Assembly: GCA_049518415.1 (NCBI GenBank)
Contig: JBEKRX010000031.1
Span: forward strand, 2,359-66,358
DNA: 64,000 nucleotides
Source: Verrucomicrobiota bacterium
Lineage (GTDB): Bacteria; Verrucomicrobiota; Verrucomicrobiia; Limisphaerales; UBA8199
Reading direction: 5' to 3'
The position numbers and the translations under genes are program-made. Each line of letters opens with the position of its first letter. The stretch's first letter is position 1. The notes beneath the pieces were generated by a model that worked only from the letters and a program-made list of their open reading frames with translations, did not search any database and was not told the DNA's origin. This document shows, piece by piece, positions 20,306-54,818 of the stretch.

Positions 20306-20686
20306 GTGAATGCCCCAACCCCACTCCGCGTGAAAACGGTCCTCTTGGTCGATGACGGAGATGAATCTCGCCTCCTCACCAGGTGGTTTTTGACTTACTT
20401 CGGGTACGTCGTGGATTCCGTGCGCAGCGCCGAGGAAGCCCTCGGTGTCTTCGACCCGAAAATTCATGACGCCGTTGTGACCGACAATTCCATGCAGGGG
20501 ATGACCGGGGTGGAGATGGCGCACATTATCAAGCTCAGGTCTCCTGCCACACCCGTGATCATGCACACCGGATTGGTGCCCGAAGATCGCTCCTGCCTGG
20601 ATTTCGTGGTGCAGAAACCGGCTCACCTGCTGGAAATTAAAGAGGCTCTCGATAAATTCCTGGGTGGAATGCCGCCCCCGAAGTGA
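20306..20686 (+). CDS. Stand-alone response-regulator receiver (CheY-like)
   Basis: VLLVDDGDES (acidic pocket), VVTDNSMQGMTG (phospho-Asp context), VVQKP (conserved Lys). No output domain. Confidence 0.85.
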   Translation: MNAPTPLRVKTVLLVDDGDESRLLTRWFLTYFGYVVDSVRSAEEALGVFDPKIHDAVVTDNSMQGMTGVEMAHIIKLRSPATPVIMHTGLVPEDRSCLDFVVQKPAHLLEIKEALDKFLGGMPPPK

Positions 20687-20927
20687 TGCCCGGGTATTTC
20701 CACCGCGCGCTCTTCACGCTCTGAATCAACAACTCGCGCCGACCTGGAGCGAACGATTATTTGATTATTTCGCCTTGTCCGAAAAGTGATTGGCCTTGTC
20801 TTATTTATGTATAGACTTCATAACCGATTTCCGCTTTAATACCGTTTGCTAATAATGCCGGTCAAGGTCCCGAGTGAGAGAAGGCCACAGATGGGAGGCA
20901 GTCCGGCTAGGGTGCCGGCCCCGGAAG

Positions 20928-20966
20928 GGTGTCGATATTCTTAACGGTGTCGATATTCTTAACGGT
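20928..20966. repeat. Perfect tandem duplication, 18-nt unit ggtgtcgatattcttaac x2 (+ggt)
   Basis: Read directly from the sequence. Intergenic. Confidence 0.95.
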
Positions 20967-21201
20967 CGCATGGCGGGAGTGCCCGACGGCCGATAACAGT
21001 TTCATAAACACCGTAGAATCAAGGCCTTACGCAAGCGCCGCTGGTTGGGACTGGCAGTAGAGCGCTTCTGGGTGTCGGTCAAGCTTACACAATCGCCGAA
21101 AAAGCCAAGGGCTGATCGAACGGAGAATACGAAAATCCGAGACCCTAAGTGGTTGAGAATAAACATGATACAACTAAGCACCCCGTCCCGCTGTCATATT
21201 G

Positions 21202-21243
21202 GCATGGGAATGGCTAATTTCTGCATGGGAATGGCTAATTTCT
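21202..21243. repeat. Perfect tandem duplication, 21-nt unit gcatgggaatggctaatttct x2
   Basis: Read directly from the sequence. Intergenic, AT-rich surroundings. Confidence 0.95.
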
Positions 21244-21812
21244 GAATAGTTAATTCCTGATTTGGTTAGATTACAAGACAGGCTCTGTGGCAGAGTCTGT
21301 GGGTCACAATCGCCCTCCAGGACTGGCGCCTCCCCAATGGGATAGAATGGTGCACAGCCCCGCTGGCGGCGGATAACGGTGAGCTTTTCGCTTTCGACCA
21401 TGGATTGCCAGGCATCTTCGAGAGTGGGACCGAGTGGTCACCGCTGTCGGCGTGCATTTGTCAGGCCGTTCTGGGCCGAACACAGGGCGTTTTCCGCGCT
21501 CTGGAGTCAGCGTTCACTCACAGATTCTGCTATGGAGGCGGAAAGTCGATGTTGTGGGACGGGCAGAAAAGCGAGCCTGGCAGGGGCGCCTGCCGGAGGG
21601 GGCTGGGTGTGGTTTTGGCTATTGGGGCCACCTACCCCTTCCGCCCCTCGTGGAACCTGCTGCCCATTTCGCATCAGGATCTTCCACGACCCGGTTGGTT
21701 GGCATTGGGACGGGGCCTGTTCTCGGCGGTTGAAGCAGCCGCAGGAGGAACTCGCGCTGGAGAGATTCGGGGCTGTTCCAGCCCAAAAGTGACGTCCCAA
21801 TGGAGGTGCTGA

Positions 21813-22910
21813 ATGCTTGCTCACGATCATCTTGCCCTGCAGCTTCTTCGCCTCAAGCCGCCTGAAGAGTGGCTGAATCGAGGCCACAGCTTCTCTTTCC
21901 TGTTTCCGCAGGGGGGCGTCGGAACGTTCGTCTCCGCGGCGATCAATCATCCCCTTGCACCCGGCGATGTCCTTGTTCTCACGGAGGCCCAGGGTGGCAA
22001 GGTCTGCGCCGCGGACGCTGGGGAACTGGTCTTTTGGTGCTTTTCCCTCTGTTTGGAGCATCTGTACCCGCTGTTTGGGAGCAATGAGCTGGCCCTGTTG
22101 CAGCACGTCACCGAATGTTTCAGGACCCCCAGGCTGTATCCCGCTCCCAGCCCCCTTGCCCAGGAATGCCATCGACTGCTGGCGGCTGCCCCGGCCCAAC
22201 ACCACCTGGACCACCGCGGCCAATTGCTGCGGGTCGTGACCGCCATTTTAACCGTGGAATTCAAAGACGCCCGCCGCCAGCGGGGCGGGTTTGTCGGCAC
22301 CGAGGAACACATGATCCACGTGTTCGAGGAGCTTTTAGTGGCTGACATCATGGGTCTTACGGTGGGGGAATTGGCGGACAAATTCCATTGCAGCCCGCGC
22401 CATTTGAACCGCCTCTTTCATCAGCACTTTGGCTTCTCCGTGGCCGCCCTGAGAATGGAGATGCGGTTGATCAAAGCCATTTCCCTGCTGCGAAATCGCG
22501 ACGCCAAGGTCATCCACGTGGCTGAACAATGCGGTTTCAACCACCTGGGTCTTTTCAATTCCTGCTTCAGGCGCCGGTTCGGCACCAGCCCGGGCCAGTG
22601 GCGCGACGGCAATATGCCCGCCCACGCTCACCCCGCAGGACTGATCGAGGGCGACCACCTTTGTCAAATGCGAGCCAACGGTTTGTGCCCCTGGACCGGC
22701 AAGCCCGGCAGCGCAGGACCCACCAGCCCAAAACCCGCCCGCTTGAGCCCCTCCGGGCTCCGGAAGGCGGGCTCCCCCTTCGGTCCGCTGGCGCCCCAAC
22801 CCCGGGACGCATCGGTGAAGGGCGTCATCCGCGCAAAGCTGGAGGCCGCCGTCCGCGCAAAGCTGGAGGCCGCCTCCCGTCCCACATCGGAGAAAGGCCG
22901 TGGTTTATGA
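21813..22910 (+). CDS. AraC-family transcriptional regulator
   Basis: C-terminal dual HTH: HCSPRHLNRLFHQHFGFSVAALRMEMRLIKAISLLRN...IHVAEQCGFNHLGLFNSCFRRRFGTSPGQWR. Cupin-like N-terminal half. A ~95-aa low-complexity tail may be read-through. Confidence 0.8.
   Translation: MLAHDHLALQLLRLKPPEEWLNRGHSFSFLFPQGGVGTFVSAAINHPLAPGDVLVLTEAQGGKVCAADAGELVFWCFSLCLEHLYPLFGSNELALLQHVTECFRTPRLYPAPSPLAQECHRLLAAAPAQHHLDHRGQLLRVVTAILTVEFKDARRQRGGFVGTEEHMIHVFEELLVADIMGLTVGELADKFHCSPRHLNRLFHQHFGFSVAALRMEMRLIKAISLLRNRDAKVIHVAEQCGFNHLGLFNSCFRRRFGTSPGQWRDGNMPAHAHPAGLIEGDHLCQMRANGLCPWTGKPGSAGPTSPKPARLSPSGLRKAGSPFGPLAPQPRDASVKGVIRAKLEAAVRAKLEAASRPTSEKGRGL
22828..22875. repeat. 24-nt tandem duplication (tccgcgcaaagctggaggccgcc x2) giving RAKLEAA-RAKLEAA
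   Basis: 23/24 identical units in the AraC tail, just upstream of the priming transferase start. Confidence 0.9.
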
Positions 22911-24348: not shown

Positions 24349-25682
24349 AGAGCGGAGGTCGGAAGACAGAGGTCAGAGGTCAGAGGGCGGAAGGCCGAGG
24401 CCGGAAGTCCGAGGTCAGAGGTCAGTGCCTCCGACCTCCGACCTCCGACCTCCGACCTCTGTGCTTTATCTGCGCCGCGCTGGCCGCCGCTGGCGGCAGC
24501 GCTTCGGCCCAGGACGCCCTCCGCCTTTCCCTGAGCTGCCAGTCTGCCGCCTCCCAGCCCCGCCTGGAACTCGAAAACCAACCCTACACCGTCCGTTGGG
24601 GCGATTTGAAGGTCCTCGCCTCCGCTTCGCTGGACGGCGAGTGGAATGACAATGTGAACCTGGCTCACGCCGATCCCCAGCAGGACTTCATCATTCGGCC
24701 GCTGGCCAACTTCGGTGTCTTCTGGCCGGTCACCGAGCTCAATGCCTTGACCTTCTCGCTCGGCGCCGGTTACGAAAAGTTTGTCAGCCACGACCAATAT
24801 GATCGGCCCCTGATCACGCCCGGATCTGCGCTGACCTGGGACATTTTCACCAAGAACCTCCGCATCAATCTCCATGACCAGTTCTCGTACGAGCAGGACC
24901 CGACGGCCTGGGGCGCCATCAGCCGCACCGCCAGGGCCGGCGGATTGGACAATACCCTGGGGGCGATGGCCGTGTGGGACCTGCACGATGTGGTCCTTTC
25001 CTTCGGCTACGACCATTTCAACTTCGTCTCCTCCTCCTCGACCTACGACTACCTGAGCCGCGCTTCCGATTTCCTCCTGCTCCGGGCCGTCTTTAAGGTC
25101 CACCCGGCGGCGACCGCCGGCCTCGAGCTGAGCGGCGGCCCGACCGCTTACGACCAGAAGCTCCTGAGCGACAACGTGACCGCTAGCGCGGGCGGGTTTG
25201 CCGAGTGGCAGGCCACCGAGGTTATCAAACTGCTGGCGAGACTTGGCTTCTATCAATACAGCTTCTCCAACGAAGGCGCGGCTGCCGGGAGCGGCGATCA
25301 ATCCGGCTATTATGCCTCCTTGAACCTGTCCTATCGGCCGAGTCCTAAAATCAGCTACTCGGTGGAGGGCGGTCACGAGGCCTTCATGGGCAACTCCTCC
25401 GCCCTGACCGACCAGTACTACGGCACTGCTTCTGTCAATTGGCGCCTCATTGAGCATATCTCGCTCTCCACCTCGGTTCGGTATGAAACCGCCACACAAC
25501 CCATTGGACCCTTTAGGGACAATTATGACCGCGTGTCCGCCAACCTCAGGTTGTCCTGCCCCATAAAGCAGAAGCTGACCGCCAGCCTGAACTACCGGTA
25601 TTGGCTCAAGACCTCGGGTCTGAGCCAGTTCCTCGATTATGAGCAAAACTGCCTCACCTTGCACCCTGCATACCAGTTTTGA
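24345..25682 (+). CDS. Putative outer-membrane beta-barrel protein of the EPS export module
   Basis: ATGA overlap with the upstream stop. Signal-like LCFICAALAAAGGSASAQD. Alternating beta-strand-like composition and a terminal aromatic residue (...LHPAYQF). The position between the priming GT and the Wza-like gene matches PEP-CTERM-associated OM proteins. The family call is inference. Confidence 0.5.
   Translation: MKSGGRKTEVRGQRAEGRGRKSEVRGQCLRPPTSDLRPLCFICAALAAAGGSASAQDALRLSLSCQSAASQPRLELENQPYTVRWGDLKVLASASLDGEWNDNVNLAHADPQQDFIIRPLANFGVFWPVTELNALTFSLGAGYEKFVSHDQYDRPLITPGSALTWDIFTKNLRINLHDQFSYEQDPTAWGAISRTARAGGLDNTLGAMAVWDLHDVVLSFGYDHFNFVSSSSTYDYLSRASDFLLLRAVFKVHPAATAGLELSGGPTAYDQKLLSDNVTASAGGFAEWQATEVIKLLARLGFYQYSFSNEGAAAGSGDQSGYYASLNLSYRPSPKISYSVEGGHEAFMGNSSALTDQYYGTASVNWRLIEHISLSTSVRYETATQPIGPFRDNYDRVSANLRLSCPIKQKLTASLNYRYWLKTSGLSQFLDYEQNCLTLHPAYQF
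24354..24455. repeat. Heptamer-array inverted repeat (cagaggt x n ... ccgacct x n)
   Basis: The arms gaggtcagaggtcag / ctccgacctccgacctc are imperfectly complementary. It lies in the first ~110 nt of the OM-barrel ORF. Confidence 0.8.
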
Positions 25683-25686
25683 TTCC

Positions 25687-26640
25687 ATGAACGCTCCCCA
25701 AAAACCACGGACCGCGAGGAGTAACCCGCAGAACACGCAGAACACGCGGAATTCAGAACCCTCCCATCTGCCTTTCCGCGTATTCAGCGTATTCCGCGGT
25801 TGCTTCTTCGGCTGCCCCCTGCCTTTCCGCGTATTCAGCGTGTTCTGCGGGTACTTCTTCGGTTGCGCCCTGGTGCTCGCCGCCTTCGGTTCCGCGGCCG
25901 CCGACCCTCGCTTTGCCGACCCCAAGACCTGGTTGCAGGGTCTAAGCAATCAGTGGAACGCCACCTCGCCGGCCCCAACCAATGTCCCTCCGACCAACGC
26001 TGCTCCCCTGACCTCCGACCTCCGACCTCCAACCTCCGCCCCCCCGGCCTCCGGATCTAACACCAACGCCTTCTCCACCATGGACACCCTGGACGACAAG
26101 CACAAGCTGGCCCTGGGCGACCGCCTCAGCTTTCGCATTGTCGAGGACCAGGAAGACCCGAGGGAAACCCTCGCCCCCAAACCGCCTGTCCCCGTCACTG
26201 ATTCAGGCGATGTCGAGGTCCCCTACATCGGGCGGTTTCCGGCCGTCGGCAAGACCTGCAAACAGTTGGCCCGTGAAATCAGAACCGAGCTCGAGAAGAA
26301 ATACTATTACCAGGCCACGGTCATCATCGCCCTCGACCTGGTGACCAGGAGCGGCGGCCGGGTCTATCTCGTGGGCCAAGTGCGGGCCTCCGGGCCCGTT
26401 GAGATTCCGGGCGACGAGGTCTTCACGCTCAGCAAGGCCATCCTGCGCGCCGGCGGCTTCACCGAGTATGCGAACCAGCGCCATGTCAAAGTCACGCGCA
26501 ATGGGCGCGACGCCGCGAACAAAACGCAGACATTCATCGTAAACATGAACGAAGTCTTCGAGAAAGGCAAAACCGAAAGCGACATGAAACTCGAACCCGG
26601 CGACCTGATCTTCGTCCCCCGCCGGCTGGTCATCTTTTAG
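25687..26640 (+). CDS. Polysaccharide export protein (Wza / Poly_export + SLBB type)
   Basis: LALGDRLSFRIVEDQ...VTDSGDVEVPYIGRFPAVGKTCKQLAREIRTELEK.YY...VYLVGQVRASGPVEIPGDEVFTLSKAILRAGGFTEYA...LEPGDLIFVP. The start is uncertain because the first ~60 codons are repeat element copy A. Confidence 0.8.
   Translation: MNAPQKPRTARSNPQNTQNTRNSEPSHLPFRVFSVFRGCFFGCPLPFRVFSVFCGYFFGCALVLAAFGSAAADPRFADPKTWLQGLSNQWNATSPAPTNVPPTNAAPLTSDLRPPTSAPPASGSNTNAFSTMDTLDDKHKLALGDRLSFRIVEDQEDPRETLAPKPPVPVTDSGDVEVPYIGRFPAVGKTCKQLAREIRTELEKKYYYQATVIIALDLVTRSGGRVYLVGQVRASGPVEIPGDEVFTLSKAILRAGGFTEYANQRHVKVTRNGRDAANKTQTFIVNMNEVFEKGKTESDMKLEPGDLIFVPRRLVIF
25724..25867 (-). repeat. 9-mer palindromic element, copy A (inverted relative to B-D, with a partial internal duplication)
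   Basis: ccgcagaacacgcagaacacgcggaattcagaa...ctgcctttccgcgtattcagcgtattccgcggttgcttcttcggctgc, followed by a second ctgcctttccgcgtattcagcgtgttctgcgg. Confidence 0.85.
26008..26040. repeat. Heptamer array cctccga x4 inside the Wza-like ORF (PLTSDLRPPTSAPP)
   Basis: Read directly from the sequence. Same unit as in 24425-24455. Confidence 0.8.
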
Positions 26641-29807: not shown

Positions 29808-29950
29808 CGGCGGACGAAGGACTACGAGACTACTGACCACTGACCACTAACCACGGACTACTGACTACGGTGGTCCGTGGTCAGTGGTCCGTGGTCCCGT
29901 GGTTCCGTGGTCCGTGGTCCGTGGTCCGTGGTCCGTAGTCCCTTGTCCCT
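29798..29950. repeat. Heptamer-array hairpin (tgaccac/ggactac arm against ggtccgt arm) starting in the wzc stop codon
   Basis: 29851-29870 pairs with 29875-29894 (18 Watson-Crick + 2 G-U pairs, loop tggt). The flanking arrays extend the complementarity. Confidence 0.85.
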
Positions 29951-29953
29951 TAT

Positions 29954-30403
29954 ATGCGAGATTATACGAAAATTGAAGCCTGGAAGCTGGCGGACGACCT
30001 GACGGTGGCAGTTTATTCATGCACCCGGTCTTTCCCTAGGGAAGAATTGTACGGGCTGACAAGCCAAATCCGGCGTGCGGCCTATTCTGTTCCGGCAAAT
30101 ATCGCTGAAGGCTCCTCACGAGAGAGCAAGCGCGATTACCTGCACTTTCTCTACATTGCAAGAGGCTCCTTGACCGAAACGCAGTACTTCATCCATCTCG
30201 CGCGCCGCCTGGGCTATCTATCAGAAGCCGACGCCGAGCAGCTCCACGCGCAGACGAAGTCCACTTTTGCATGCCTGCACGGCCTGATTCGAGCCGTTGA
30301 GAAAGAAACCGGGAGATTAAGCACCGTGGTGGCCGCGATCACCAGTGCCGTCGTCCTCTGCCTTTGGTCCCGTGGTCCGTGGTCCGTGGTCAGTAGTCCG
30401 TAG
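29954..30403 (+). CDS. Four-helix-bundle protein (23S rRNA intervening-sequence protein / Avd-like family)
   Basis: EAWKLADDLTVAVYSCTRSFPREELYGLTSQIRRAAYSVPANIAEGSSRESKRDYLHFLYIARGSLTETQYFIHLARRLGYL is a near-consensus match to this family. The last ~20 codons run into repeat R'. Confidence 0.85.
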   Translation: MRDYTKIEAWKLADDLTVAVYSCTRSFPREELYGLTSQIRRAAYSVPANIAEGSSRESKRDYLHFLYIARGSLTETQYFIHLARRLGYLSEADAEQLHAQTKSTFACLHGLIRAVEKETGRLSTVVAAITSAVVLCLWSRGPWSVVSSP

Positions 30404-30410
30404 TCCCTTC
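30365..30410. repeat. Heptamer array R' (ggtccgt units); direct repeat of 29905-29950
   Basis: 30386-30410 is complementary to 29816-29840 (24 pairs with one bulge on each side). Confidence 0.8.
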
Positions 30411-45986: not shown

Positions 45987-47259
45987 GCTGACGGGAATTG
46001 CGCCATACAACCGGGCCCTGTGCGACTTCCTGAACTCGCGCGGGCACCGGGTGCGGATGGTCACCTCGTTTCCCTACTATCCAGCTTGGCAAAAGCGGCC
46101 CGAGGATCGGCGCCGGCTTTACCGCACTGACAACGTGTGGGGCGTGCCAGTCCATCGCTGCTATCATTATGTGCCGGGAGGCCCTACCTCGTTAAAGAGA
46201 ATTCTTCATGAAAGCTCTTTTGTGCTTGCCTCGTTCCTGCGGTTGGTGACGCTCCCGCGTCCGGATGTCTATGTGGTGATTTCGCCGCCGTTGCTCCTGG
46301 GAGCAGCCGCCTGGCTGCTGACGCGGATCAAGCGGGCGCCGTTTGTCTTCCATGTCCAGGACCTCCAGCCTGATGCCGCGTGTGGTTTGGGCATGCTCAA
46401 GCGCGGCCTGTTTACCAGGGCGCTTTATGCCCTGGAAGGCTTTGCTTATCGAAAGGCCGCGCGCGTCTCGGGCATTTGCCGGGGAATGCTCGAGGTGTTT
46501 CAGCGCAAAGGTGTGCCGCCGCGGAAAATTGTCTATTTTCCCAATGGAGTGGAGTTCACGAGCAAGGAGCACCTCCCGCCGCCAGGGCGCTTTCGGGCCC
46601 GGCAGGGCTTTGGCCGCGATGAGTTCCTGGCCGTCTATTCGGGGAATCTCGGCGTGAAGCAGGGCTTGGAGATTTTGATCGAAGCCGCGCCTTTGATCCG
46701 CGACCCCAGGATACGAATCGTCATCTGCGGAGACGGCGCCGAACGAGAAAGGCTGGCGGCGGAAATCAGGCTCCGCCAAATCACCAATGTGCGGCTCATT
46801 CCCTTGCAGCCGGAAGAACGCTATCTGGAGATGCTCACGGATGCCGATCTGTGCCTCATCACCCAAAAGCGGGGCGCTGGCGCCTTTTTCCTCCCGAGCA
46901 AAGTGCTCCGCAGCCTGGCCATGTCCCGGCCAGTACTGGCCGTCGCCGACGAATCGAGCGAACTCACGCGGGCCCTCAGGGCAGGGGGCTTTGGCATTAC
47001 TGTCGAACCGGACGACCCGCGCAGCTTGGCCGGGGCGCTGGAGAACCTGGCGGAAGACAGGCAGCGGCTCCGCCGGTTCGGCGATTCCGGCCGTGAGTTT
47101 GTGAAGCAGTTCGAAATGACCCGCGTCCTCGAGCAGTTTCAGAATGAACTTCAGTGGCTCGTCAAGGGCGAGACGCGCGTTCCCACCTTCCCGGCGCCTC
47201 TCTCGGGGGCCCCTGCTCCGGAACGAAGATCGACGGGCGTCCAGGAGGTCGGCGGGTAG
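45949..47259 (+). CDS. WcaI-family glycosyltransferase
   Basis: MKITIWGINYSPELTGIAPYNRALCDFLNSRGHRVRMVTSFPYYPAWQ is the characteristic WcaI N-terminus. C-terminal GT1 domain. Confidence 0.85.
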   Translation: MKITIWGINYSPELTGIAPYNRALCDFLNSRGHRVRMVTSFPYYPAWQKRPEDRRRLYRTDNVWGVPVHRCYHYVPGGPTSLKRILHESSFVLASFLRLVTLPRPDVYVVISPPLLLGAAAWLLTRIKRAPFVFHVQDLQPDAACGLGMLKRGLFTRALYALEGFAYRKAARVSGICRGMLEVFQRKGVPPRKIVYFPNGVEFTSKEHLPPPGRFRARQGFGRDEFLAVYSGNLGVKQGLEILIEAAPLIRDPRIRIVICGDGAERERLAAEIRLRQITNVRLIPLQPEERYLEMLTDADLCLITQKRGAGAFFLPSKVLRSLAMSRPVLAVADESSELTRALRAGGFGITVEPDDPRSLAGALENLAEDRQRLRRFGDSGREFVKQFEMTRVLEQFQNELQWLVKGETRVPTFPAPLSGAPAPERRSTGVQEVGG

Positions 47260-47288
47260 AGCGCCCGGGCCGCCGCCGCCTTGAAACC

Positions 47289-48866
47289 GTGAACTCCACC
47301 GCATCCAACGGGTTTATTCCCCCCGAAACATCCACGACTGCCGGGCGCTGCTCTGGCCTGCGCGGCTCGGTCCTGATCGCCCTGTGCTGGGTTCCGTTGC
47401 TGAACTTGTTGCGAGTGGACTGGAGCGTCAACCCGGAATACGGTTTTGGTTGGTTTGTGCCCCCAATCGCCGTCGTACTGTTCTGGCTGCGCTGGCGCTG
47501 CCGGCCCGAACCGGAACCTGCCCCTGCCTCGACAGCCGCTATCCTGCTCGCTAGCGTGGCGCTGTTGTGCCTTCTCCCCCTCCGCCTGGTTGAAGAAGCA
47601 AACCCGGACTGGCGGCGGGCCTTTTGGTACCATGGCATCCTATTGTCCCTACTCTCCGCCGGCGTCTTTTGGCATCTGGGGGGCCGGCCCTGGGCAAGGC
47701 ATTTTGCCTTCCCTATCTGTTTCCTGCTCACTTCCGTGCCATGGCCCGTGGGGCTGGAGGTTCTTGTCACCCAGCGGATGATGCGTTACGTAGCTGCTGT
47801 TACGGTGGAAGTCGTCGGGTGGTTGGGGATTCCAGCGGTGCGGAGTGGAAACGTCGTCGAGATCAGTACCGGCCTGGTGGGCATCGACGAGGCTTGCAGC
47901 GGGGTGAGATCCCTCCAAACTTCGGTTATGATCGGGTTTCTCCTGGGCGAAATCTATCGACTGAAAGCCAGTCGGCGGGGTTGGCTTCTCCTGGGCAGTG
48001 TCGTGCTCGCATTCTTCATCAACGTCGGCCGAACTTCCACATTGACCTGGAGCGCCTCGCGCCAGGATTTCGGGCGAATGAATGCATTGCATGACGCCGC
48101 CGGCTTGGCGGAGGTTTTCCTGGCCCTGGCCGGCATTTGGACCCTCGCCATCCTGCTTCGACAAAAGACGCCTGTCCAGCACCAGGCCTTGGCCAGCAGC
48201 ACCGCCACCCGCATCCTGGGAACGCCCGTGCTGGTCGCGGTGTTCGGGTGGCTCTTGTCGGTGGAGGCCATCAATGAAACGTGGTACAGGGCGCACGAAG
48301 CCGAGCCGCTCAAAAACATTCAATGGACAATCAATTCGCGCACCAATTGGCCGGGGTGGCGAAAAGTTCCGATCCCCGAACGGTCTCTTGCCATTCTACG
48401 CTGCTCAGATGCTGCAAGCTACTCCTGGCGGGATGCCAGCGGCGGTGAGTGGAGGCTCAACCACCTCCGCTGGCCACCGAGCAGGAACTCGGCCCACCTG
48501 GCGAAGGGGCACCGTCCGGACATTTGTCTGCCCTCAGCCGGGTGGACTGTGGTCGAGCAGCGGGGGAAGATATCCATTCCTGTGCATGGACTGAACTTCG
48601 CCTTGCAACATGGCGTTTACCAGAAAGGCGGCCAGCCGGCGAACGTCTTCTACGGCCTCTGGGAAAACGATTCCGGCCGTGGCGGCCAGGATCTCCCGGA
48701 AAATAACACCGTGGCCAACCGTTTGTCTGCTGTGCTCCACGGTAAGCGGAATCGCGGCCAGCAAGTCCTGGAAATCCTGATTACCGGCGCCTCCTCTCCG
48801 TTGGAAGCACTCACCGCCCTCCAGGAGACGCTGGGCCAACTCATCGAGCGGCATAAGGATCGGTAA
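47289..48866 (+). CDS. Exosortase fused to an EpsI-family domain
   Basis: Polytopic N-terminal half with exosortase catalytic motifs GIDEACSGVRSLQ (Cys), FINVGRTS (Arg), ALHDAAG (His). The C-terminal half carries the EpsI-type HRPDICLPSAGW. GTG 47289 is the first plausible start after the WcaI stop. Confidence 0.8.
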   Translation: MNSTASNGFIPPETSTTAGRCSGLRGSVLIALCWVPLLNLLRVDWSVNPEYGFGWFVPPIAVVLFWLRWRCRPEPEPAPASTAAILLASVALLCLLPLRLVEEANPDWRRAFWYHGILLSLLSAGVFWHLGGRPWARHFAFPICFLLTSVPWPVGLEVLVTQRMMRYVAAVTVEVVGWLGIPAVRSGNVVEISTGLVGIDEACSGVRSLQTSVMIGFLLGEIYRLKASRRGWLLLGSVVLAFFINVGRTSTLTWSASRQDFGRMNALHDAAGLAEVFLALAGIWTLAILLRQKTPVQHQALASSTATRILGTPVLVAVFGWLLSVEAINETWYRAHEAEPLKNIQWTINSRTNWPGWRKVPIPERSLAILRCSDAASYSWRDASGGEWRLNHLRWPPSRNSAHLAKGHRPDICLPSAGWTVVEQRGKISIPVHGLNFALQHGVYQKGGQPANVFYGLWENDSGRGGQDLPENNTVANRLSAVLHGKRNRGQQVLEILITGASSPLEALTALQETLGQLIERHKDR

Positions 48867-49030
48867 AGGGAAGCCTTTGGATCCCCAGCGTGGGCTGCCT
48901 GGGGGAGGGGACCTTTTGCCTGCAGGCGATAGCCTGGACGGTTTCGCAAGGCGATCTCCGTCATCGGCCCAGCGAGCCCGGAAGAGGCGGTGCGCGTGCT
49001 CCGGAAGGAGTTGGAGAAACTGATTGTTTT

Positions 49031-50695
49031 ATGAAAAAGCTCTTCATTGTCATCCTGTCCTTGTGCGTGATCTTCGTGACCGGCTTTGCCGGTTACCGCG
49101 GTTACAAGATCTGGAGACAGAAGCATTTTGTGAAAATGGCGCGGGCCTTCATTGTGAAGGGCGACGCCGCCAATGCGGTGCTCTGCCTGCGCCAGGCGCT
49201 GGCGTCCAACCGCAACAACCTGGAGGCCTGCCGCCTGATGGCTGACTTCGCGGAATTGGCCGGTTCGCCCCAGGCGGTGCTCTGGCGCAGCCGGGTCGTG
49301 GATTTGGAACCGAACTCGCTGACCAACCGGCTGGCCCTGGCAAGGACCGCGCTGGCCGCCGGCGACGCCGACCTCGCCAACAAAACGCTGGACGGTGTGG
49401 ACGAGGCCGGCAAGAAAACGGCCGTGTTTCAGAGGGTGGCCGGCGCGGCGGATCTCGCGGCCAGACGGTTCTCGGAGGCCGAAACACATTTCTCCGAGGC
49501 CGCGCGCCTGGAACCGGCCAACCCCGTCTCGCAGTTGAACCTCGCCACGCTCCGCCTCAGCAAGAGCGATCCGGCGGCGTCAACTGAGGGGCGGGCGGTG
49601 TTGCAGGCGCTCTGCACCAACCTGGCGGTCCGCTGTGATGCCCAGCGCCAACTCACCCGGGACGCCTTGCGGCACACGAACTTGCCCGGCGCATTCGCCT
49701 TTTCCCAGGAGTTGCTCAAGGATACCAACTCGGTCTTCGCCGACCGGATGCTGCACCTGGATATTCTGCGCGCGACGACCAATGCCCAGCAGGAGAGTCT
49801 CCTGTCCGCGTTGCAAAAGGAGTCGGTCAACAACCCGGCCAAGGCCTCCGAGGTGGCCAAGTGGATGTTGAGGACGACCGGCAAGCCGGAGGCGGCGCTG
49901 GCCTGGATGGGCGCCCTCCCGCCTGCGACCCGCACCAACCTGCCCGTGCCAATGATCCAGGCGGACTGTTACATCGCCCAGAAGAATTGGACCGCTCTCC
50001 AAACCAATTTGGCGCAACAGAACTGGTCCGACCTGGATTGCCTGCGGCTGGCCTGCCGCGCCCGCGCCTTCAAGGAACAGAACATGACCGCTACGGCCAA
50101 AACGGAGTGGACCGCGGCGATGAAAGCGACCGGGAACCGCCGCGAGCTCCTGGTCCAACTCCTGAACACGACCGGCTTATGGAACTGGCCGCAGCAGCAG
50201 GAGGATGTGCTTTGGGCCATCGTCAATACCTACCCCAGGGAGAGTTCCGCGGTCCGGGTGTTGTCGAGCCGGCTCTATGCGGCCGGCAGGACCCGCTCGT
50301 TGCTGACGCTTTATGGCGTCGCGCTGCAAAATGACCCGGGCAACCCCGGCCTGATGAACAACCTGGCGATGACTGCCCTCCTGCTGGAGTCGTGGGATAA
50401 AAAGCCGCACGACCTGGCACGCGAAGCCTACGCCAAGGCGTCCACGAACGCGGCCTTCGTCTCCACTTACGCCTATTCCCTGCTGGTGCAGCAGAAGCCG
50501 GCGGAGGCGCTGAAGACGATCGAGCAGCTCAGCCCGCAGCAACTGGAGGATCCCGGCATCGCTGCTTATTATGGCTTGATCCTGAAGGGCGCCGGCAACG
50601 CGCCGAAGGCCAAATCATACCTGGACCTCGCCTCGAAGGCCAGGTTGCTGCCCGAGGAGCAGAAGCTCGTCGAAAAAGCCCGCAGAGGAACCTGA
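49031..50695 (+). CDS. TPR-repeat protein following the exosortase (PrsT-like context)
   Basis: MKKLFIVILSLCVIFVTGFAGY anchor and TPR-like helices throughout. Any PrsT relationship is inferred from position only. Confidence 0.7.
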   Translation: MKKLFIVILSLCVIFVTGFAGYRGYKIWRQKHFVKMARAFIVKGDAANAVLCLRQALASNRNNLEACRLMADFAELAGSPQAVLWRSRVVDLEPNSLTNRLALARTALAAGDADLANKTLDGVDEAGKKTAVFQRVAGAADLAARRFSEAETHFSEAARLEPANPVSQLNLATLRLSKSDPAASTEGRAVLQALCTNLAVRCDAQRQLTRDALRHTNLPGAFAFSQELLKDTNSVFADRMLHLDILRATTNAQQESLLSALQKESVNNPAKASEVAKWMLRTTGKPEAALAWMGALPPATRTNLPVPMIQADCYIAQKNWTALQTNLAQQNWSDLDCLRLACRARAFKEQNMTATAKTEWTAAMKATGNRRELLVQLLNTTGLWNWPQQQEDVLWAIVNTYPRESSAVRVLSSRLYAAGRTRSLLTLYGVALQNDPGNPGLMNNLAMTALLLESWDKKPHDLAREAYAKASTNAAFVSTYAYSLLVQQKPAEALKTIEQLSPQQLEDPGIAAYYGLILKGAGNAPKAKSYLDLASKARLLPEEQKLVEKARRGT

Positions 50696-50726
50696 TCCGT
50701 AGGGCGGGGCAACCATCGAACCGCAA

Positions 50727-50771
50727 AAGAGCCCTGAGGGCCGCCGCGCTCTCAGGGCTCTTGCGTTTATT
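50727..50771 (+). terminator. Terminator-like hairpin after the TPR gene
   Basis: aagagccctgag-N12-ctcagggctctt followed by gcgtttatt (weak U-tract). Confidence 0.4.
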
Positions 50772-50780
50772 CGGCGAGCT

Positions 50781-50873
50781 GCAGCCGAAGAAGGAACCGC
50801 AGAATACGCTGAATACGCGGAAAGGCAGATGGCGGAGTTCTGAATTCTGCATATTCGGCGTATTCTGCGGTTC
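50781..50873 (+). repeat. 9-mer palindromic element, copy B
   Basis: gaaccgcagaatacgctgaatacgcgg ... ctgcatattcggcgtattctgcggttc. The outer 16 bp are perfectly complementary. Confidence 0.9.
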
Positions 50874-50946
50874 ACTCCCCCGCCCCACCCAACCCACAGG
50901 CATCCCTATCTGTGGCATGTGTCCAGTCGGTGGCCTGCGGAATCTC

Positions 50947-50985
50947 TGTCTGAATTGTGATCTAAGATGTCCGATTGCTAGATAG
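50947..50985 (+). promoter_or_regulatory. PEP-CTERM upstream element, orphan copy C1
   Basis: tgtctgaattgtgatctaagatgtccgattgctagatag. No gene follows it. Confidence 0.45.
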
Positions 50986-51126
50986 TTTGTGGTGGCGGGT
51001 TGCCGCGGCCTGCCGTCATCACAGGCCGCGCGCTTCCAGCTTCCAGCAGCACCACCATCCCCTGTGCCCCGCTCGCGAACAAAGGGGAACTGATCCCTGT
51101 AGCCGGGCCAACCATCGAACCGCACA

Positions 51127-51171
51127 AGAGCCCTGAGGGCCGCCGCGCTCTCAGGGCTCTTGCGTTTACTC
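51127..51171 (+). terminator. Terminator-like hairpin (duplicate of 50727-50771)
   Basis: Same stem, followed by gcgtttact. Confidence 0.3.
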
Positions 51172-51179
51172 GGCCGAGC

Positions 51180-51283
51180 CGCAACCGAAGAAGCAACCGC
51201 AGAATACGCTGAATACGCGGAAAGGCAGACGGTCCCGATTCGGAATCGGGAAATTCCGCGTATTCCGCGTGTTCTGCGGTTCG
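51180..51283 (+). repeat. 9-mer palindromic element, copy C
   Basis: ccgcaaccgaagaagcaaccgcagaatacgctgaatacgcggaaaggcaga...ccgcgtattccgcgtgttctgcggttc. Confidence 0.9.
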
Positions 51284-51356
51284 CTCCTCCGCCCCACCCA
51301 ACCCAAAGACATCTCTATCTGTGGCATGTGTGCGGTCGGTGGCCTGCTGAATCTCT

Positions 51357-51397
51357 GTCTGAATTGTGATCTAAGATGTCCGGCGTTTGGATAGACG
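51357..51397 (+). promoter_or_regulatory. PEP-CTERM upstream element C2
   Basis: tgtctgaattgtgatctaagatgtccggcgtttggatagac. 142 nt before ATG 51540. Confidence 0.5.
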
Positions 51398-51539
51398 CGC
51401 ACGCGCGGTTATGGGATAAGTAAATCAGAAATCCTCGGGTTTTGCTCGGGAACGGGGCTGGCTTGGCCCCGCCGAACCGAGAGCGGGCACGAAACAGGCC
51501 GGCGAAATGCCGGCGGCCATTGACAAAACAGTCGAATCT

Positions 51540-52229
51540 ATGAAAAGGGCTTACAAACTGGCGGCAGCGCTTGCTCTCCTGATGAGCGTCGTCTCGGCGC
51601 GGGCGGCTATGTTAGCTAATACGGGAGCCGCTGTTGATGCTGATGGTAGCGACAAAAACTGGACGCTGGCCTCCGTGGTTCCGGGCGACAAGCTGGGCGA
51701 CGATCCATCTGTACCATACGGACTGAGCCTGCCCAATGCCTATGTCGTCAATGACGATGGCAACTTTCCGTTTAACGGCTATTGGCTGCGCAACAGTCTC
51801 GCGTCCAGGTGGATCACTTATGCCGCTCCAATGTACACGGGGGGAGATATAGGCCGCACGTTCGATTACCGACTGGCTTTCACGGCGACGGCGGATGGTG
51901 TCGTCAATTTCCGATGGGCATCAGACAATTCAAGCGAGGTGACACTCGACGGCACCAAAATCGCCAACAATGGCCAACCTAACCCAAATAACTATACGAC
52001 CTTCAACAGTTGGTCATACGGGACATTCAACGTGACGAAAGGCACAGGATACACATTGGACGTCGACGTGTTGAATATCGGCCAGGACTCCGGCAACCCC
52101 ACCGGCATGCGGTTCGAGGTTGTCCCCGAGGCCAGCACGATGTTCGCCGGCGCCGGCGCGCTCGGGCTCGTTCTCCTCGGCCTCGGTGTCCACTCGAAAC
52201 GCTCGGCCGTTCTCCGAATGGGTAAGTAA
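51540..52229 (+). CDS. PEP-CTERM sorting-domain protein 1
   Basis: Signal peptide MKRAYKLAAALALLMSVVSARA. C-terminus VVPEASTMFAGAGALGLVLLGLGVHSKRSAVLRMGK (PEP motif + TM + basic cluster). Confidence 0.85.
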   Translation: MKRAYKLAAALALLMSVVSARAAMLANTGAAVDADGSDKNWTLASVVPGDKLGDDPSVPYGLSLPNAYVVNDDGNFPFNGYWLRNSLASRWITYAAPMYTGGDIGRTFDYRLAFTATADGVVNFRWASDNSSEVTLDGTKIANNGQPNPNNYTTFNSWSYGTFNVTKGTGYTLDVDVLNIGQDSGNPTGMRFEVVPEASTMFAGAGALGLVLLGLGVHSKRSAVLRMGK

Positions 52230-52348
52230 GCCCCTCGCAAAGCAGTTCTTTCCGCTCGACGGGCATGCCCAACGGCCTGCCTGTTTGCTTTTCAGCCTGA
52301 GCCAGGTTCCCGCGTGGCCGGACCCCTTCCCGCCGTTGCTGCGCCTGG

Positions 52349-52443
52349 CCGCAACCGAAGAAGCAACCGCGGAATACGCTGAATACGCGGAAAGGCAGAC
52401 AGCGGAGTTCTGAATTCCGCGTATTCCGCGTGTTCTGCGGTTC
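52349..52443 (+). repeat. 9-mer palindromic element, copy D (between convergent PEP-CTERM genes)
   Basis: ccgcaaccgaagaagcaaccgcggaatacgctgaatacgcggaaaggcagacagcggagttctgaattccgcgtattccgcgtgttctgcggttc. Confidence 0.9.
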
Positions 52444-52471
52444 AGTCCTCCTAACAGGAGCGGGATTGAAA

Positions 52472-52506
52472 GCAAAAATCAGGCAGGCTTTGAGAGCCTG
52501 CCTGAT
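52472..52506 (-). terminator. Rho-independent terminator of PEP-CTERM gene 2
   Basis: The minus strand reads atcaggcaggct-ctcaa-agcctgcctgat followed by ttttt. 35 nt after the stop. Confidence 0.7.
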
Positions 52507-52540
52507 CGATCTGAGAAGCGTGGAGGACCCGGTTACTGAA

Positions 52541-53110
52541 TTATTGTCCGATTCTAATGACCCCTGAGCGCTTGGACCGGAACATGCCCAACAGGACCAA
52601 CCCGAGTGCGCCGATGCCGGCGACCATGGTCGTGGGCTCGGGGACAAGCGTGACGGTTGCCGGCCCAGTATATGTCAACGTGTAACCGACGCCGTTGTCA
52701 TACGCATAGAGACTATAGTTACCGGGGCTGTTGCCCCAGAGATTGATCTCGCGGACGCCTGAGGTCCACAACAGCAGACCATAGGTGGTGAGGTAAGGGT
52801 CCTTGCCGGGGAACAACTGGTTGTCGTATATGAACGCACCAGCTGGGGAGACAGTCGGCGCAGTGCCATTCGGGTTGAAATACAACGAGTAGCTGCCCAC
52901 GACCCCGGCGGTAGTCGAAGCGGTAATGTCGAGGGTGCCGCTGATGGCCGTGTAGCTGCCGTCGTCATTGGGATTGGCCGTCAGTTGGCCGTTGGCAGCG
53001 TTGCCCGACGGATCGGAGTAGGTGAGGTCGAAGACGACCGAGGCCTGAGCCTGAACCGCGAGCCCCAAGGCGCCCGCCAATAATGCTGCTTGTAATGTTT
53101 TTAATCTCAT
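52541..53110 (-). CDS. PEP-CTERM sorting-domain protein 2
   Basis: ATG 53110 gives MRLKTLQAALLAGALGLAVQAQA with the RBS-like gaaaggaagca upstream. C-terminus LVPEPTTMVAGIGALGLVLLGMFRSKRSGVIRIGQ. Confidence 0.85.
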   Translation of the reverse strand: MRLKTLQAALLAGALGLAVQAQASVVFDLTYSDPSGNAANGQLTANPNDDGSYTAISGTLDITASTTAGVVGSYSLYFNPNGTAPTVSPAGAFIYDNQLFPGKDPYLTTYGLLLWTSGVREINLWGNSPGNYSLYAYDNGVGYTLTYTGPATVTLVPEPTTMVAGIGALGLVLLGMFRSKRSGVIRIGQ

Positions 53111-53249
53111 TGCTTCCTTTCTGTTTTTGACCGTCGCGGAAAGCGGCTTCCGGCCAGGCGTGAAAGCCACAAACGTTTCCTGCCCTGCACGCGAGTGGTC
53201 TGGTTATTGTTCATACTGTGGCCCCATTTTGCCACGGCGCGCCATCTGC

Positions 53250-53290
53250 GTCTATCGCATTACCAGACATCTTCGCTCAGTTATCGGACA
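53250..53290 (-). promoter_or_regulatory. PEP-CTERM upstream element C3
   Basis: The sense strand reads tgtccgataactgagcgaagatgtctggtaatgcgatagac. 139 nt before ATG 53110. Confidence 0.5.
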
Positions 53291-53550
53291 CGCAACATTC
53301 CGGCGGCACGGCTGCAGTTCAGTCCCAACTGACGCCTCCCCCGTCCGAAATGTGACAAGTCATGTCCGACTCCTGTCTTATACTGCCCCTGCCCTGTCCG
53401 CCGGTGATAGCCCGCCTGAATGGCCGAAATGTGACTCATGCACCATGTCGTAAATACTCGCGGAATTCGCGCTTGCCTTTGGCTCGTAGTTCCGCTTGTT
53501 CGGCCCACAGGGGACTTCAACCCCGTAGGGTCTGAGTCATGTCCGGCATA

Positions 53551-53582
53551 CAACAAAAAGGCAGGCCAAGCTGGCCTGCCTT
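53551..53582 (-). terminator. Rho-independent terminator of PEP-CTERM gene 3
   Basis: The minus strand reads aaggcaggcca-gct-tggcctgcctt followed by tttgttg. 30 nt after the stop at 53613. Confidence 0.7.
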
Positions 53583-53612
53583 GTGTCGTAATTGACGAGG
53601 TTGGTCTTGGGG

Positions 53613-54329
53613 TTAGTTGCCAATCTTGAGGACGCCAGAGCGGCGGCGCAGTCCGAGCAGAACCAAGCCGAGCGCGCCGATGCCCGCCACCATGGTGGTC
53701 GGCTCGGGAACAATGGCTAACTGGTCCTGGTTGAGGTGATAAGTCACGCCACCAGTTCCTTGCTTATCCGTGGGCGAGGATCCAGGCGGCCCATCGAACA
53801 GGTTCAGAGCCACCACGTTGTATGCACCGCCGGAGTCGCCCACCAATTGTGCATCGGTCATGCCCAACGCTGTTCGTGCTTGCCCCAAGTACGGGTTGGC
53901 CGCGTTGTAATCGACTTCTCCTTCGAGCATCCAGATCGCGGTTTGAAGAACGCCTGCATTCGCCTGGCGATTTACTCCGAAGTAGTTCGCCAGCGTGCCC
54001 GCACGGAACTGGCTGTAAAGCCAAGCGGTGCCAATGGAAATGTTATCCATCGCAATGCCGGTGTTCAGGTCGGTTGTGTCAGCACCCACTCCGCCAGCCA
54101 CAGCGCCGGTGTTTTTGTAGTACTTGTATGTTGCGCCCGGGAGGAACCACTCCTGATCCTCAATACAGAATGTTTGGAAGGTACCGATGGGGCTCACCAC
54201 CCGAAATTCACCCCCCTGGCCGTTTTCATACCCCGACCCATTCACGATGAGCGTTCCGTCATAAGCGGCGAACAGATTGGGGGCGACCATCGCCCCTGCC
54301 AACCCTACTATCAGACATAGCTTTCTCAT
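53613..54329 (-). CDS. PEP-CTERM sorting-domain protein 3
   Basis: Signal peptide MRKLCLIVGLAGAMVAPNLFA. C-terminus IVPEPTTMVAGIGALGLVLLGLRRRSGVLKIGN. Confidence 0.85.
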   Translation of the reverse strand: MRKLCLIVGLAGAMVAPNLFAAYDGTLIVNGSGYENGQGGEFRVVSPIGTFQTFCIEDQEWFLPGATYKYYKNTGAVAGGVGADTTDLNTGIAMDNISIGTAWLYSQFRAGTLANYFGVNRQANAGVLQTAIWMLEGEVDYNAANPYLGQARTALGMTDAQLVGDSGGAYNVVALNLFDGPPGSSPTDKQGTGGVTYHLNQDQLAIVPEPTTMVAGIGALGLVLLGLRRRSGVLKIGN

Positions 54330-54483
54330 TTGCTATCCTTTCTTCTGCTGGCCTTCGCCGAAAGTCATATCTGGTTCGACGTCAGAGCCTGGTAAAACTC
54401 TCTACACAACAAAGGCTGTTCCTGGTTCATTAGGGGTTTTCCCAATGATAACCGGGACTATTTATAGAGCGGTAACGACAATT

Positions 54484-54525
54484 GATCTATCCCATTGCCG
54501 GACATCTTAGCTCACTTATCAGACA
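54484..54525 (-). promoter_or_regulatory. PEP-CTERM upstream element C4
   Basis: The sense strand reads tgtctgataagtgagctaagatgtccggcaatgggatagatc. 154 nt before ATG 54329. Confidence 0.5.
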
Positions 54526-54577
54526 TAGATGCATTGCCTGATTTAATATGAGAGTCGGCCGCGTGACTTCCACTTTA

Positions 54578-54603
54578 CGGACAGCACCGATCACATTTCA
54601 GAC
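54578..54603 (-). promoter_or_regulatory. PEP-CTERM upstream element, partial copy C5
   Basis: The sense strand reads gtctgaaatgtgatcggtgctgtccg (21/26 match to C2). It lacks the GATAGA part. Confidence 0.35.
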
Positions 54604-54818
54604 GACGCCTTGTCCTGGTAGATTCGTGAACCGGGTCAAGGCAGCCGCCCAAGTTCAGGTTGCCGGCCGCCACCAGGGCATTCTGGACGCTCTTCTGGAG
54701 CAGAGGGGCGCAGCGCATTGAGCACCGCCAACCCTGGCGCGTTGCCGCTCTTTTAAGCGTCGAGCGCCCTGAGCTGCGCCGAAAACTCGTGCCGGCCGGA
54801 GGGAGGACGAGGATGGAG

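Follow-up and report, generated by a model that had tools for sequence, protein, structure and literature searches.

Each of the three PEP-CTERM genes in a 64,000-nucleotide stretch of a Verrucomicrobiota genome (contig JBEKRX010000031.1; this whole stretch is hereafter called the window) is preceded by a conserved DNA element of about 40 nt. Our analysis supports a dedicated, strand-consistent cis-regulatory role for this element, tied to PEP-CTERM genes, and most probably it makes up the upstream half of a composite promoter that is of the housekeeping-sigma type, depends on an activator and is common to the PEP-CTERM genes of a Verrucomicrobiota lineage. From the first of its GTCC repeats to the weak -10-like hexamer, this composite would measure ~65 bp. 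Copies in the element's own genome were searched for across the window. The 28-nt consensus TGTCYGAWWWSTGAKCKAAGATGTCYGG, proposed in an earlier note on this DNA, has exactly four matches there with up to three mismatches (the repeat modules of C1 to C4, Table 1), and no match at all was found in 100 dinucleotide shuffles of the window. The sequences and orientations that had been quoted for the copies were correct, and the further upstream copy C5 is present. With a looser 25-nt core, GTCNNNWWWNTGANNNNNNNNGTCY, seven exact matches were obtained (C1 to C7) vs 0.02 expected; C6 and C7 had escaped the earlier note.

The element accompanies PEP-CTERM genes in related genomes

The DNA of the window matches contigs from peat and soil metagenomes. 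Homologues of PEP-CTERM gene 3, about 55% identical to it, are encoded on contigs L007 and L008, where the same element stands ahead of several PEP-CTERM genes; these two contigs were chosen via protein homology and not via the motif, and copies precede most of their PEP-CTERM transcription units. A scan pattern derived from these copies, GTCNNNWWWNTGANNNNNRATGTCYNNNNNNNNNRTAGA, was run against one genome each for 185,579 species (596 Gb). The scan returned 46 loci, about 32 of Verrucomicrobiota type from about 27 assemblies and about 14 lone matches in unrelated taxa, the latter number being near the ~17 chance matches estimated for a 36-bit pattern over 1.2e12 positions at uniform composition. 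None of the chance matches has a PEP-CTERM gene downstream, vs almost all Verrucomicrobiota matches. Nearly all loci of Verrucomicrobiota type are so labelled (SPRUCE peat metagenome-assembled genomes (MAGs), MFD MAGs, 'subdivision 3', Limisphaerales). Five carry other labels (L013, Bifidobacterium; L020, Acidoferrum; L037, Pseudomonadales; L045, Acidobacteria; L012, uncultured bacterium); all five have the Verrucomicrobiota-type element and PEP-CTERM tails, and a NusG paralogue encoded in L020 and L037 is 83-88% identical to that of L008. These labels are likely due to mis-binning or mislabelling. Among the longer contigs with the motif are CAWDIX010000002.1 (4.6 Mb), CAWJTA010000001.1 (1.8 Mb) and JBEKRQ010000001.1 (0.8 Mb).

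An nhmmer profile built from 42 instances added many copies within the loci, up to nine per 8 kb. Read from the motif, a PEP-CTERM open reading frame (ORF) follows 43 of the 50 full copies that have a complete downstream ORF (window copies excluded), and the exceptions include two single-domain receivers. Read from the gene, a copy lies on the same strand within 450 nt upstream of 54 of 92 PEP-CTERM ORFs; for long ORFs of other kinds the count is 3 of 78 (Fisher p = 1e-15). Most PEP-CTERM ORFs without a copy seem to be later genes of tandem arrays. The element is kept across the ~27 assemblies, whose proteins are 45-60% identical. Altogether, the idea of a dedicated promoter or operator and its tie to PEP-CTERM genes hold up across these assemblies, whereas the anatomy first proposed for it does not. 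Nor is the distance to the start codon fixed, as had been thought: from element start to start codon it has a median of 134 nt among relatives (interquartile range 114-157, range 63-375), and it is the promoter geometry that is fixed instead. In the window itself, the distances differ slightly from those first given (end of GATAGAC and ATG at 51396/51540 for C2, 53250/53110 for C3 and 54485/54329 for C4).

A direct-repeat module lies upstream of a predicted core promoter

The consensus, cATGTCCCAAAaGTGAaT.AAGATGTCCC(aacatgG)GATAGAC, can be read in blocks as cATGTCCCAAAaGTGA..AAGATGTCCC..GATAGAC. Counting the G of the first GTC as position 1, direct GTCC(C/G) repeats occupy positions 1-5 and 22-26, with a central AAAGTGA at 7-13; (GG)GATAGAC follows the repeats, TAGAC(N) taking positions 36-41 and GGGAT directly abutting TAGAC. 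Several bases are conserved though not forced by the scan pattern (A at -1, CCA at 4-6, G at 10, AA at 17-18, GGG at 32-34 and C at 40). The spacing from GTC to GTC is 21 in 7/7 window copies and in the full copies, where the pattern forced it for 42; copies found by nhmmer only agree, a few of them at 22. The window lineage has GTCYGA and GTCCGG where most relatives carry GTCCCA. The TCCC-N5-GGGA palindrome of the element was also considered as an RNA or DNA hairpin and rejected, the TCCG left arms of the window copies having no compensating change in the right arm.

Further downstream, beyond an unconserved spacer of 17±1 nt that follows TAGAC(N), comes a TAnAAT-like hexamer (positions 59-64), often preceded by TGn. 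Such -10-like hexamers peak at positions 58-60, where they are found in 42 of 66 full copies vs ~6.6 expected (p = 5e-26). The most fitting reading of GATAGAC is therefore a sub-optimal -35 and not a -10, and its rare second-base variants shift towards TTGACA (TTGACG in L026, TGGACC in L053). This -35/-10 geometry puts the repeat module in the region from about -71 to -44, as expected of an activator site. In relatives, many promoters have a second GTCC-N16-GTCC module without -35/-10, usually 67-81 or 136-144 nt ahead of the full copy, and all three PEP-CTERM genes of the window have an extra module-only copy (C1 for gene 1, C6 for gene 2, C5 for gene 3). That these copies lack both hexamers indicates that the factor-binding module (positions 1-26) is separable from the core promoter.

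In the mechanism that we propose, an oligomeric transcription factor would occupy both 21-bp units on the same face of the helix and, once bound, would recruit RNA polymerase to the weak -35. Transcription is predicted to start near position 71, which would leave leaders of ~110-125 nt in the window, and the module-only copies found 50-410 nt upstream (C1, C5, C6) probably act as auxiliary sites. We infer activation instead of repression.

Several points weigh against this reading. Most loci entered the sample because they carry the motif, an ascertainment bias, and both the gene calls and the PEP-CTERM test were regex heuristics built for this analysis. Against Pfam and NCBIfam, the tails of the window proteins gave only below-threshold matches to the PEP-CTERM family models (TIGR02595 / PF07589). 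Some of the copies behind the positional enrichment are paralogous and not independent. Finally, the window hexamers are weak (TAGACG/GATAAG, TAGACG/CAAAAT and TAGATC/TATAAA) and a strict sigma-70 consensus scan of 50650-54700 found no promoter; the -35/-10 assignment is therefore comparative, drawn from positional enrichment across relatives, and not direct. Weak hexamers would fit activator dependence.

Alternative explanations

Two other promoter architectures have to be weighed against the composite one. Some extracytoplasmic function (ECF) sigma groups use TGTC-type -35 and CGTC-type -10 elements, and a dedicated ECF-type promoter with TGTCCCAAA as -35, GATGTCC as -10 and a start near GGGATAGAC, a conserved transcript start, would suit the high conservation of both blocks at rigid spacing; module-only copies could then be tandem promoters. 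The two blocks are, however, one heptamer repeated, which fits oligomeric DNA-binding proteins and not sigma regions 2 and 4, since these regions read different sequences, and the usual ECF spacing is 1-2 nt above the 21 nt seen here from start to start. An ECF promoter would also leave unexplained the -10-like hexamer fixed 17±1 nt after TAGAC and the loss of exactly the GATAGAC and -10 parts in module-only copies, and the loci read show no recurrent association of the motif with a sigma-factor gene. We regard it as improbable. Very unlikely indeed is the extended -10 that the earlier note had seen in TGnGATAGA, with a start ~7 nt later. A TG does stand two bases ahead of GATAGA in some window copies, and GATAGA has A2, T3 and A4 in common with TATAAT, but it lacks the near-invariant final T, is without a consensus -35 at 17 nt upstream (GTGAAT, which comes nearest, lies at 18 nt) and varies among sites towards TTGACA, not TATAAT. 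The better -10 is the one at a fixed 17 nt downstream, from which the predicted starts fall ~30 nt after GATAGAC.

The element might instead be transcribed and act in the leader, as an RNA element or as a recruitment site for a NusG paralogue. The JUMPStart/ops system of RfaH has such a layout, a ~40-nt element upstream of polysaccharide gene clusters in which ops acts in the transcribed leader. The likeness is real in that our element, also ~40 nt long, lies just upstream of surface-polymer-associated genes, and a UpxY/RfaH/LoaP-like NusG paralogue is encoded within 8 kb of motif copies in 13 of ~32 loci, and near PEP-CTERM clusters in L008 (16854-17378), in L140 (3869-4357, there beside the receiver and AraC-like genes) and in 11 other loci. 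Against it, the -35/-10 geometry puts the module upstream of the predicted start site, the conservation comes in blocks phased by helical turns with uncompensated changes in the palindrome arms, C6 is inverted, and the window has no NusG paralogue. The ops-like word GGCGGTAG has 20 window matches vs 13.3 expected, no clear excess over chance, and the stretches from the elements to the start codons contain none; a k-mer search of the predicted leaders for an ops-like word returned A-rich words alone. Rfam 15 gave no match in the whole window at the gathering threshold and, at E ≤ 1, merely two spurious miRNA-model matches on a palindromic repeat at 51187-51290, none of them relevant to the element. 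A leader-acting element thus seems quite improbable to us, and we give as little credence as to the extended -10 to a generic dispersed repeat, or promoter DNA passively co-duplicated without a dedicated regulator. Other repeats are indeed scattered over the region (heptamer arrays and, at 5 places, a palindromic element of ~100 nt), C1 arose from a local duplication, and PEP-CTERM genes form paralogous families. Passive spread, however, is at odds with blocks that are conserved while flanks, spacers and leaders are not, with downstream genes mostly unrelated outside their tails, with the consistent orientation and gene distance, with the 54/92 vs 3/78 enrichment and with the retention of the element across ~27 assemblies at 45-60% protein identity.

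The PEP-CTERM genes and the exosortase locus of the window

The three window proteins combine a signal peptide with a VPEP/VPEA tail, a hydrophobic stretch and a basic cluster, and tails of the form VPEPTTMVAGIGALGLVLLG..RR/KR are visible in them. Among the matches listed for gene 3, 12 of 120 homologues carry PF07589 and one is named a PEP-CTERM protein. Outside the tails the proteins are little alike, those of genes 2 and 3 being weakly similar (33% over 144 amino acids); since they share so little, recent gene duplication does not explain the conservation of the element. A terminator-like hairpin closes every PEP-CTERM gene of the window (for gene 2 at 52507-52477, for gene 3 at 53582-53558), so that each is a single-gene unit. 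The window tails also run on past the basic cluster into a conserved S(G/A)V(L/I)(K/R)(I/M)G(N/Q/K) (C-termini at 52130-52229, 52541-52640 and 53613-53710), whereas those of relatives end ...LRILRKNRTA, and the hydrophobic segment is AGIGALGLVLLG in the window against AGALLLLPFGAS in relatives. This distinct extension and segment may reflect a different exosortase subtype.

The module-only copy C1 lies, as the earlier note had recognised, in a duplicated segment. The duplication is ~280 bp long (50707-50974 vs 51106-51383) and its identity ends directly after GATGTCCG, within the element; C1 therefore retains the repeat module and nothing downstream of it, neither -35 nor -10.

On the plus strand, a gene row from 21813 to 50695 encodes the AraC-like regulator at its head, a sugar transferase, Wza, a tyrosine kinase, methyl- and glycosyltransferases, the exosortase and a tetratricopeptide repeat (TPR) protein that scores 67.8 bits against the PrsT model (cutoff 312). 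The same layout is found in L137-L142. Contrary to the earlier statement that the element precedes no other gene of the window, C7 stands ahead of this exopolysaccharide (EPS)/exosortase row: its core match (20777-20801, plus strand) belongs to a diverged copy with its own TAGACT, 17-nt spacer and TTTAAT, and a start is predicted at ~20846. C7 may drive the row, in which case machinery and substrates would share one signal. Since module variants precede both the receiver gene and the AraC-like gene heading the EPS/exosortase locus, substrates, sorting machinery and regulators would switch together.

The ~1 kb between the predicted C7 start and the AraC-like ATG (20846-21812) has no convincing ORF and a lower G+C, and contains two perfect tandem duplications (20928-20966 and 21202-21244); in L139 the corresponding gap is only ~300 nt. 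A half-module, GCCCAAAAGTGACGTCCCAATGG, lies at ~21781-21803, immediately ahead of the AraC-like ATG, and a possible degenerate copy (GGCCATTCGGTGCCTATGGATGTCCTGAATCTGGCTGGACT + 17 nt + TATTCT) is seen under the nhmmer threshold at 20040-20100, upstream of the orphan receiver.

Table 1. Element copies, genes and repeats of the window, with related arrays in other loci; promoter parts and starts are predictions.
Feature	Position	Strand	Remarks
C1, repeat module alone	50947..50974	+	409 nt upstream of C2; -35/-10 positions TAGTTT / CGGCCT, unusable
C2, putative composite promoter of PEP-CTERM gene 1	51356..51420	+	consensus match and hexamers
C2 repeat module TGTCTGA..TGA..ATGTCCGG	51356-51383	+	
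C2 -35-like hexamer TAGACG	51392-51397	+	followed by 17-nt spacer
C2 -10-like hexamer GATAAG	51415-51420	+	preceded by TGG
C2 predicted start	~51427	+	leader ~113 nt
C3, putative composite promoter of PEP-CTERM gene 2	53226..53290	-	repeat module 53290-53263
C3 -35-like hexamer TAGACG	53254-53249	-	
C3 -10-like hexamer CAAAAT	53231-53226	-	
C3 predicted start	~53219	-	leader ~109 nt
C4, putative composite promoter of PEP-CTERM gene 3	54461..54525	-	repeat module 54525-54498
C4 -35-like hexamer TAGATC	54489-54484	-	
C4 -10-like hexamer TATAAA	54466-54461	-	
C4 predicted start	~54454	-	leader ~125 nt
C5, distal repeat module GTCTGAAATGTGATCGGTGCTGTCCG	54578..54603	-	78 nt upstream of C4; without -35/-10
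C6, distal repeat module GTCCGAAATGTGACAAGTCATGTCCG	53343..53368	+	~53 nt upstream of C3, inverted relative to C3
C7, element variant (GTCCGAAAAGTGATTGGCCTTGTCTTATTTATGTATAGACT, 17 nt, TTTAAT)	20777..20840	+	between orphan receiver and AraC-like gene
PEP-CTERM-like gene 1, 229 amino acids	51540..52229	+	signal peptide; tail VVPEASTMFAGAGALGLVLLGLGVHSKRSAVLRMGK, recognised by inspection; no hidden Markov model match
PEP-CTERM gene 2, 189 amino acids	52541..53110	-	weak PEP-CTERM family-model matches in tail
PEP-CTERM gene 3, 238 amino acids	53613..54329	-	355 homologues, some annotated PF07589/PEP-CTERM
Single-domain response-regulator receiver (orphan)	20306..20686	+	
AraC-like regulator	21813..22910	+	head of EPS/exosortase gene row; candidate binder or regulon member
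Exosortase (PF09721)	47154..48866	+	domain match; 2.7 kb from PEP-CTERM genes
PrsT-like TPR protein	48890..50695	+	then terminator-like hairpin 50727-50762
Leader element GTTTGTGGCTTTCACGCCTGGCCGGAAGCCGCTTTCCGCGACGGTCAAAAAC, predicted leader of gene 2	53118..53172	-	
Leader element, predicted leader of gene 3	54348..54389	-	more diverged
Palindromic repeat	50795-50880, 51195-51290, 52365-52445, 25767-25872		four of five places
GTCC arrays, window	29870-29941, 30365-30406, 24355-24425		
GTCC arrays, relatives	L021 4007; L039 3457, 4523; L059 952-1067; L137 9790-9830		

Candidate binding factors

The AraC-like regulator of the window is a plausible, though tentative, candidate for the factor that binds the module. 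AraC/XylS sites (araI1-I2 at pBAD, XylS at Pm) have two direct-repeat units 21 bp apart, each with two sub-sites ~10 bp apart, and their proximal unit touches or overlaps a weak -35. The element is alike in its two 21-bp units, with sub-sites GTCCC plus GKGAW and a proximal unit abutting the -35, and here too an AraC-family gene heads the locus with its own site variant. Module-only copies, in contrast, lack the fourth sub-site, and the AraC-like gene lies tens of kb from most targets. The family has 1,135 matches at E ≤ 1e-10, the best 120 of which are all at least 49% identical; its two recognition helices, RHLNRLF and CGFNHLGLFN, do not vary at all among 12 aligned orthologues, of which the most distant is ~51% identical to the protein of the window, as would be expected of a factor constrained by many sites. 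Both the local AraC-like gene and the orphan receiver gene, which the earlier note had rightly singled out, are linked to the motif in other lineages: a C7-type variant lies upstream of the AraC-like orthologues in L139 and L142 (and partly in L140), and receiver orthologues lie directly downstream of motif copies in seven loci (L041, L048, L053, L063, L139, L140, L142). Speaking against this candidate, no motif was found upstream of the orthologues in L137 and L138, and no AraC-like gene was found within the 8-kb motif loci. The AraC-like protein (alignment A4) has an unannotated N-terminal domain and, beyond the DNA-binding domain, a conserved C-terminal C-x5-NGLCPW.

A response regulator of the NarL/LuxR type could also be the factor, although we consider this rather doubtful. 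Operators of this family include the 7-2-7 heptamers of NarL, BvgA dimers with ~22-bp periodicity and the GGGAC/GTCCC half-sites of DosR. The element shares GTCCC-type half-sites and a 21-bp period with them, its consensus proximal unit, TGTCCCA-ACA-TGGGATA, is nearly palindromic, and a gene of the family is divergent from motif copies in several loci; its distal unit, unlike these operators, is not palindromic. A NarL-type regulator gene lies within 8 kb in 10 of ~32 motif loci, usually divergent from the motif copy, and also in L139; the regulator is accompanied by a large PAS-rich hybrid kinase. Three observations count against the NarL-type candidate, namely its absence from the 64-kb window, a predicted recognition helix that varies among orthologues, and the presence of the motif in only 2 of the 4 long loci selected by this regulator. 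Among 80 metagenome loci with NarL-type homologues, the motif occurs in L060 and L063 alone, most close matches being on contigs too short for a judgement. The chance that some other protein binds the element is equally modest.

A PEP-CTERM cis-element distinct from that of Proteobacteria

The earlier note knew of no cis-element described for PEP-CTERM genes, but one has been reported, in Proteobacteria only and with regulation by sigma-54/PrsR (Haft et al., 2006; PMC1569441). It consists of a 17-nt motif 1 ending in TTTACA, 32-92 nt upstream of a sigma-54 -24/-12 motif, and goes with PrsR, PrsK and PrsT; further motifs were predicted still to be found outside Proteobacteria (PMC1569441). Both elements are conserved DNA within long non-coding stretches ahead of PEP-CTERM units that mostly consist of one gene. 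Both are sometimes repeated, are lineage-restricted and go with a two-component system and a TPR protein encoded close to the exosortase/EPS locus. The Verrucomicrobiota element nevertheless differs in sequence, its consensus not ending in TTTACA (a comparison made by reading, without a matrix). The window genes have no sigma-54 -24/-12 site and their core promoter looks like a -35/-10 type: a scan for TGGCAC-N5-TTGCW with up to two mismatches gave 21 window matches vs 35 expected, none of them in the three upstream regions. The regulators linked to the element are of NarL/LuxR and AraC type, not NtrC-type enhancer-binding proteins, and no sigma-54-interaction domain was found in the scanned proteins or in the gene tables of the related loci (loci, not whole genomes). 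The host lineage is Verrucomicrobiota, and the TPR protein matches PrsT weakly. Because sequence, core-promoter class, regulators and lineage all differ, we regard the element as a second, independently evolved, dedicated cis-element for exosortase substrates. Full-text literature searches on PEP-CTERM in connection with regulation in Verrucomicrobia, or with NusG, turned up no account of this element.

A second element in the leaders and other repeats

The rest of the three leaders was said not to align, and this holds only in part: the leaders of genes 2 and 3 do share a second conserved element of ~55 nt, GCGTGAAGGAATGAGTTGTGGCTTGGACGTCGAGCCAGAAGTCGCTTTCCGCGAGGGTCAAAAAC, with several GGA motifs, in the predicted 5' leaders 10-35 nt ahead of the start codon. 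It was found in 21 places of related loci (for example L007 18077-18132, L051 6879-6934 and L015 507-563). A small upstream ORF was rejected, its ATG being unconserved and its frame broken by indels, and a structured RNA is weakly supported, with a hairpin of -4.6 kcal/mol in RNAalifold and a covariation term of ~0. The leader element could be a site for a protein acting after initiation.

Two further kinds of repeat occur in the region. A ~100-nt palindromic dispersed repeat (AACCGCAGAATACGCTGAATACGCGGAAAGGCAGA ... inverted copy) is present at five places, three of which flank PEP-CTERM genes. Tandem intergenic arrays of 7-8-nt units containing GTCC are seen as (GTGGTCC)n in the window and as (GTCCCGT)n and (GTGTCCCA)n in relatives; those of L021 and L039 lie just upstream of motif copies, and in the few cases seen the array unit seems to follow the GTCC repeat of the motif as it occurs locally (GTCCG for the window, GTCCCA for L059). 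These arrays may be extra binding arrays.

Significance

A wider scheme, which we consider rather unlikely, can be drawn from these results: a clade-wide master regulon of soil and peat Verrucomicrobiota with the element as its operator. One extremely conserved, autoregulating AraC-like activator would stand at its centre, together with a phosphorelay of the PAS-rich hybrid kinase, the NarL-type regulator and the motif-driven single-domain receiver; the ~29-kb EPS/exosortase row and dozens of scattered PEP-CTERM substrate genes would be turned on together, and the ~55-nt leader element would provide a further, separate level of control after initiation.

Bacteria of soil, sediment and biofilms commonly possess PEP-CTERM/exosortase systems, and the regulation of these systems has been outlined for Proteobacteria alone (sigma-54/PrsR). 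The element provides a sequence handle on this system in Verrucomicrobiota, a major and largely uncultured phylum of soil and peat, where it points to a regulon for cell-surface proteins. It permits regulon prediction from MAGs alone and flags secreted proteins co-expressed with the exosortase/EPS machinery, and the analysis names concrete regulator candidates. It appears that dedicated cis-elements for this one class of sorting substrates arose independently in two phyla, which suggests that tight, switch-like control is a general need of PEP-CTERM/exosortase systems.

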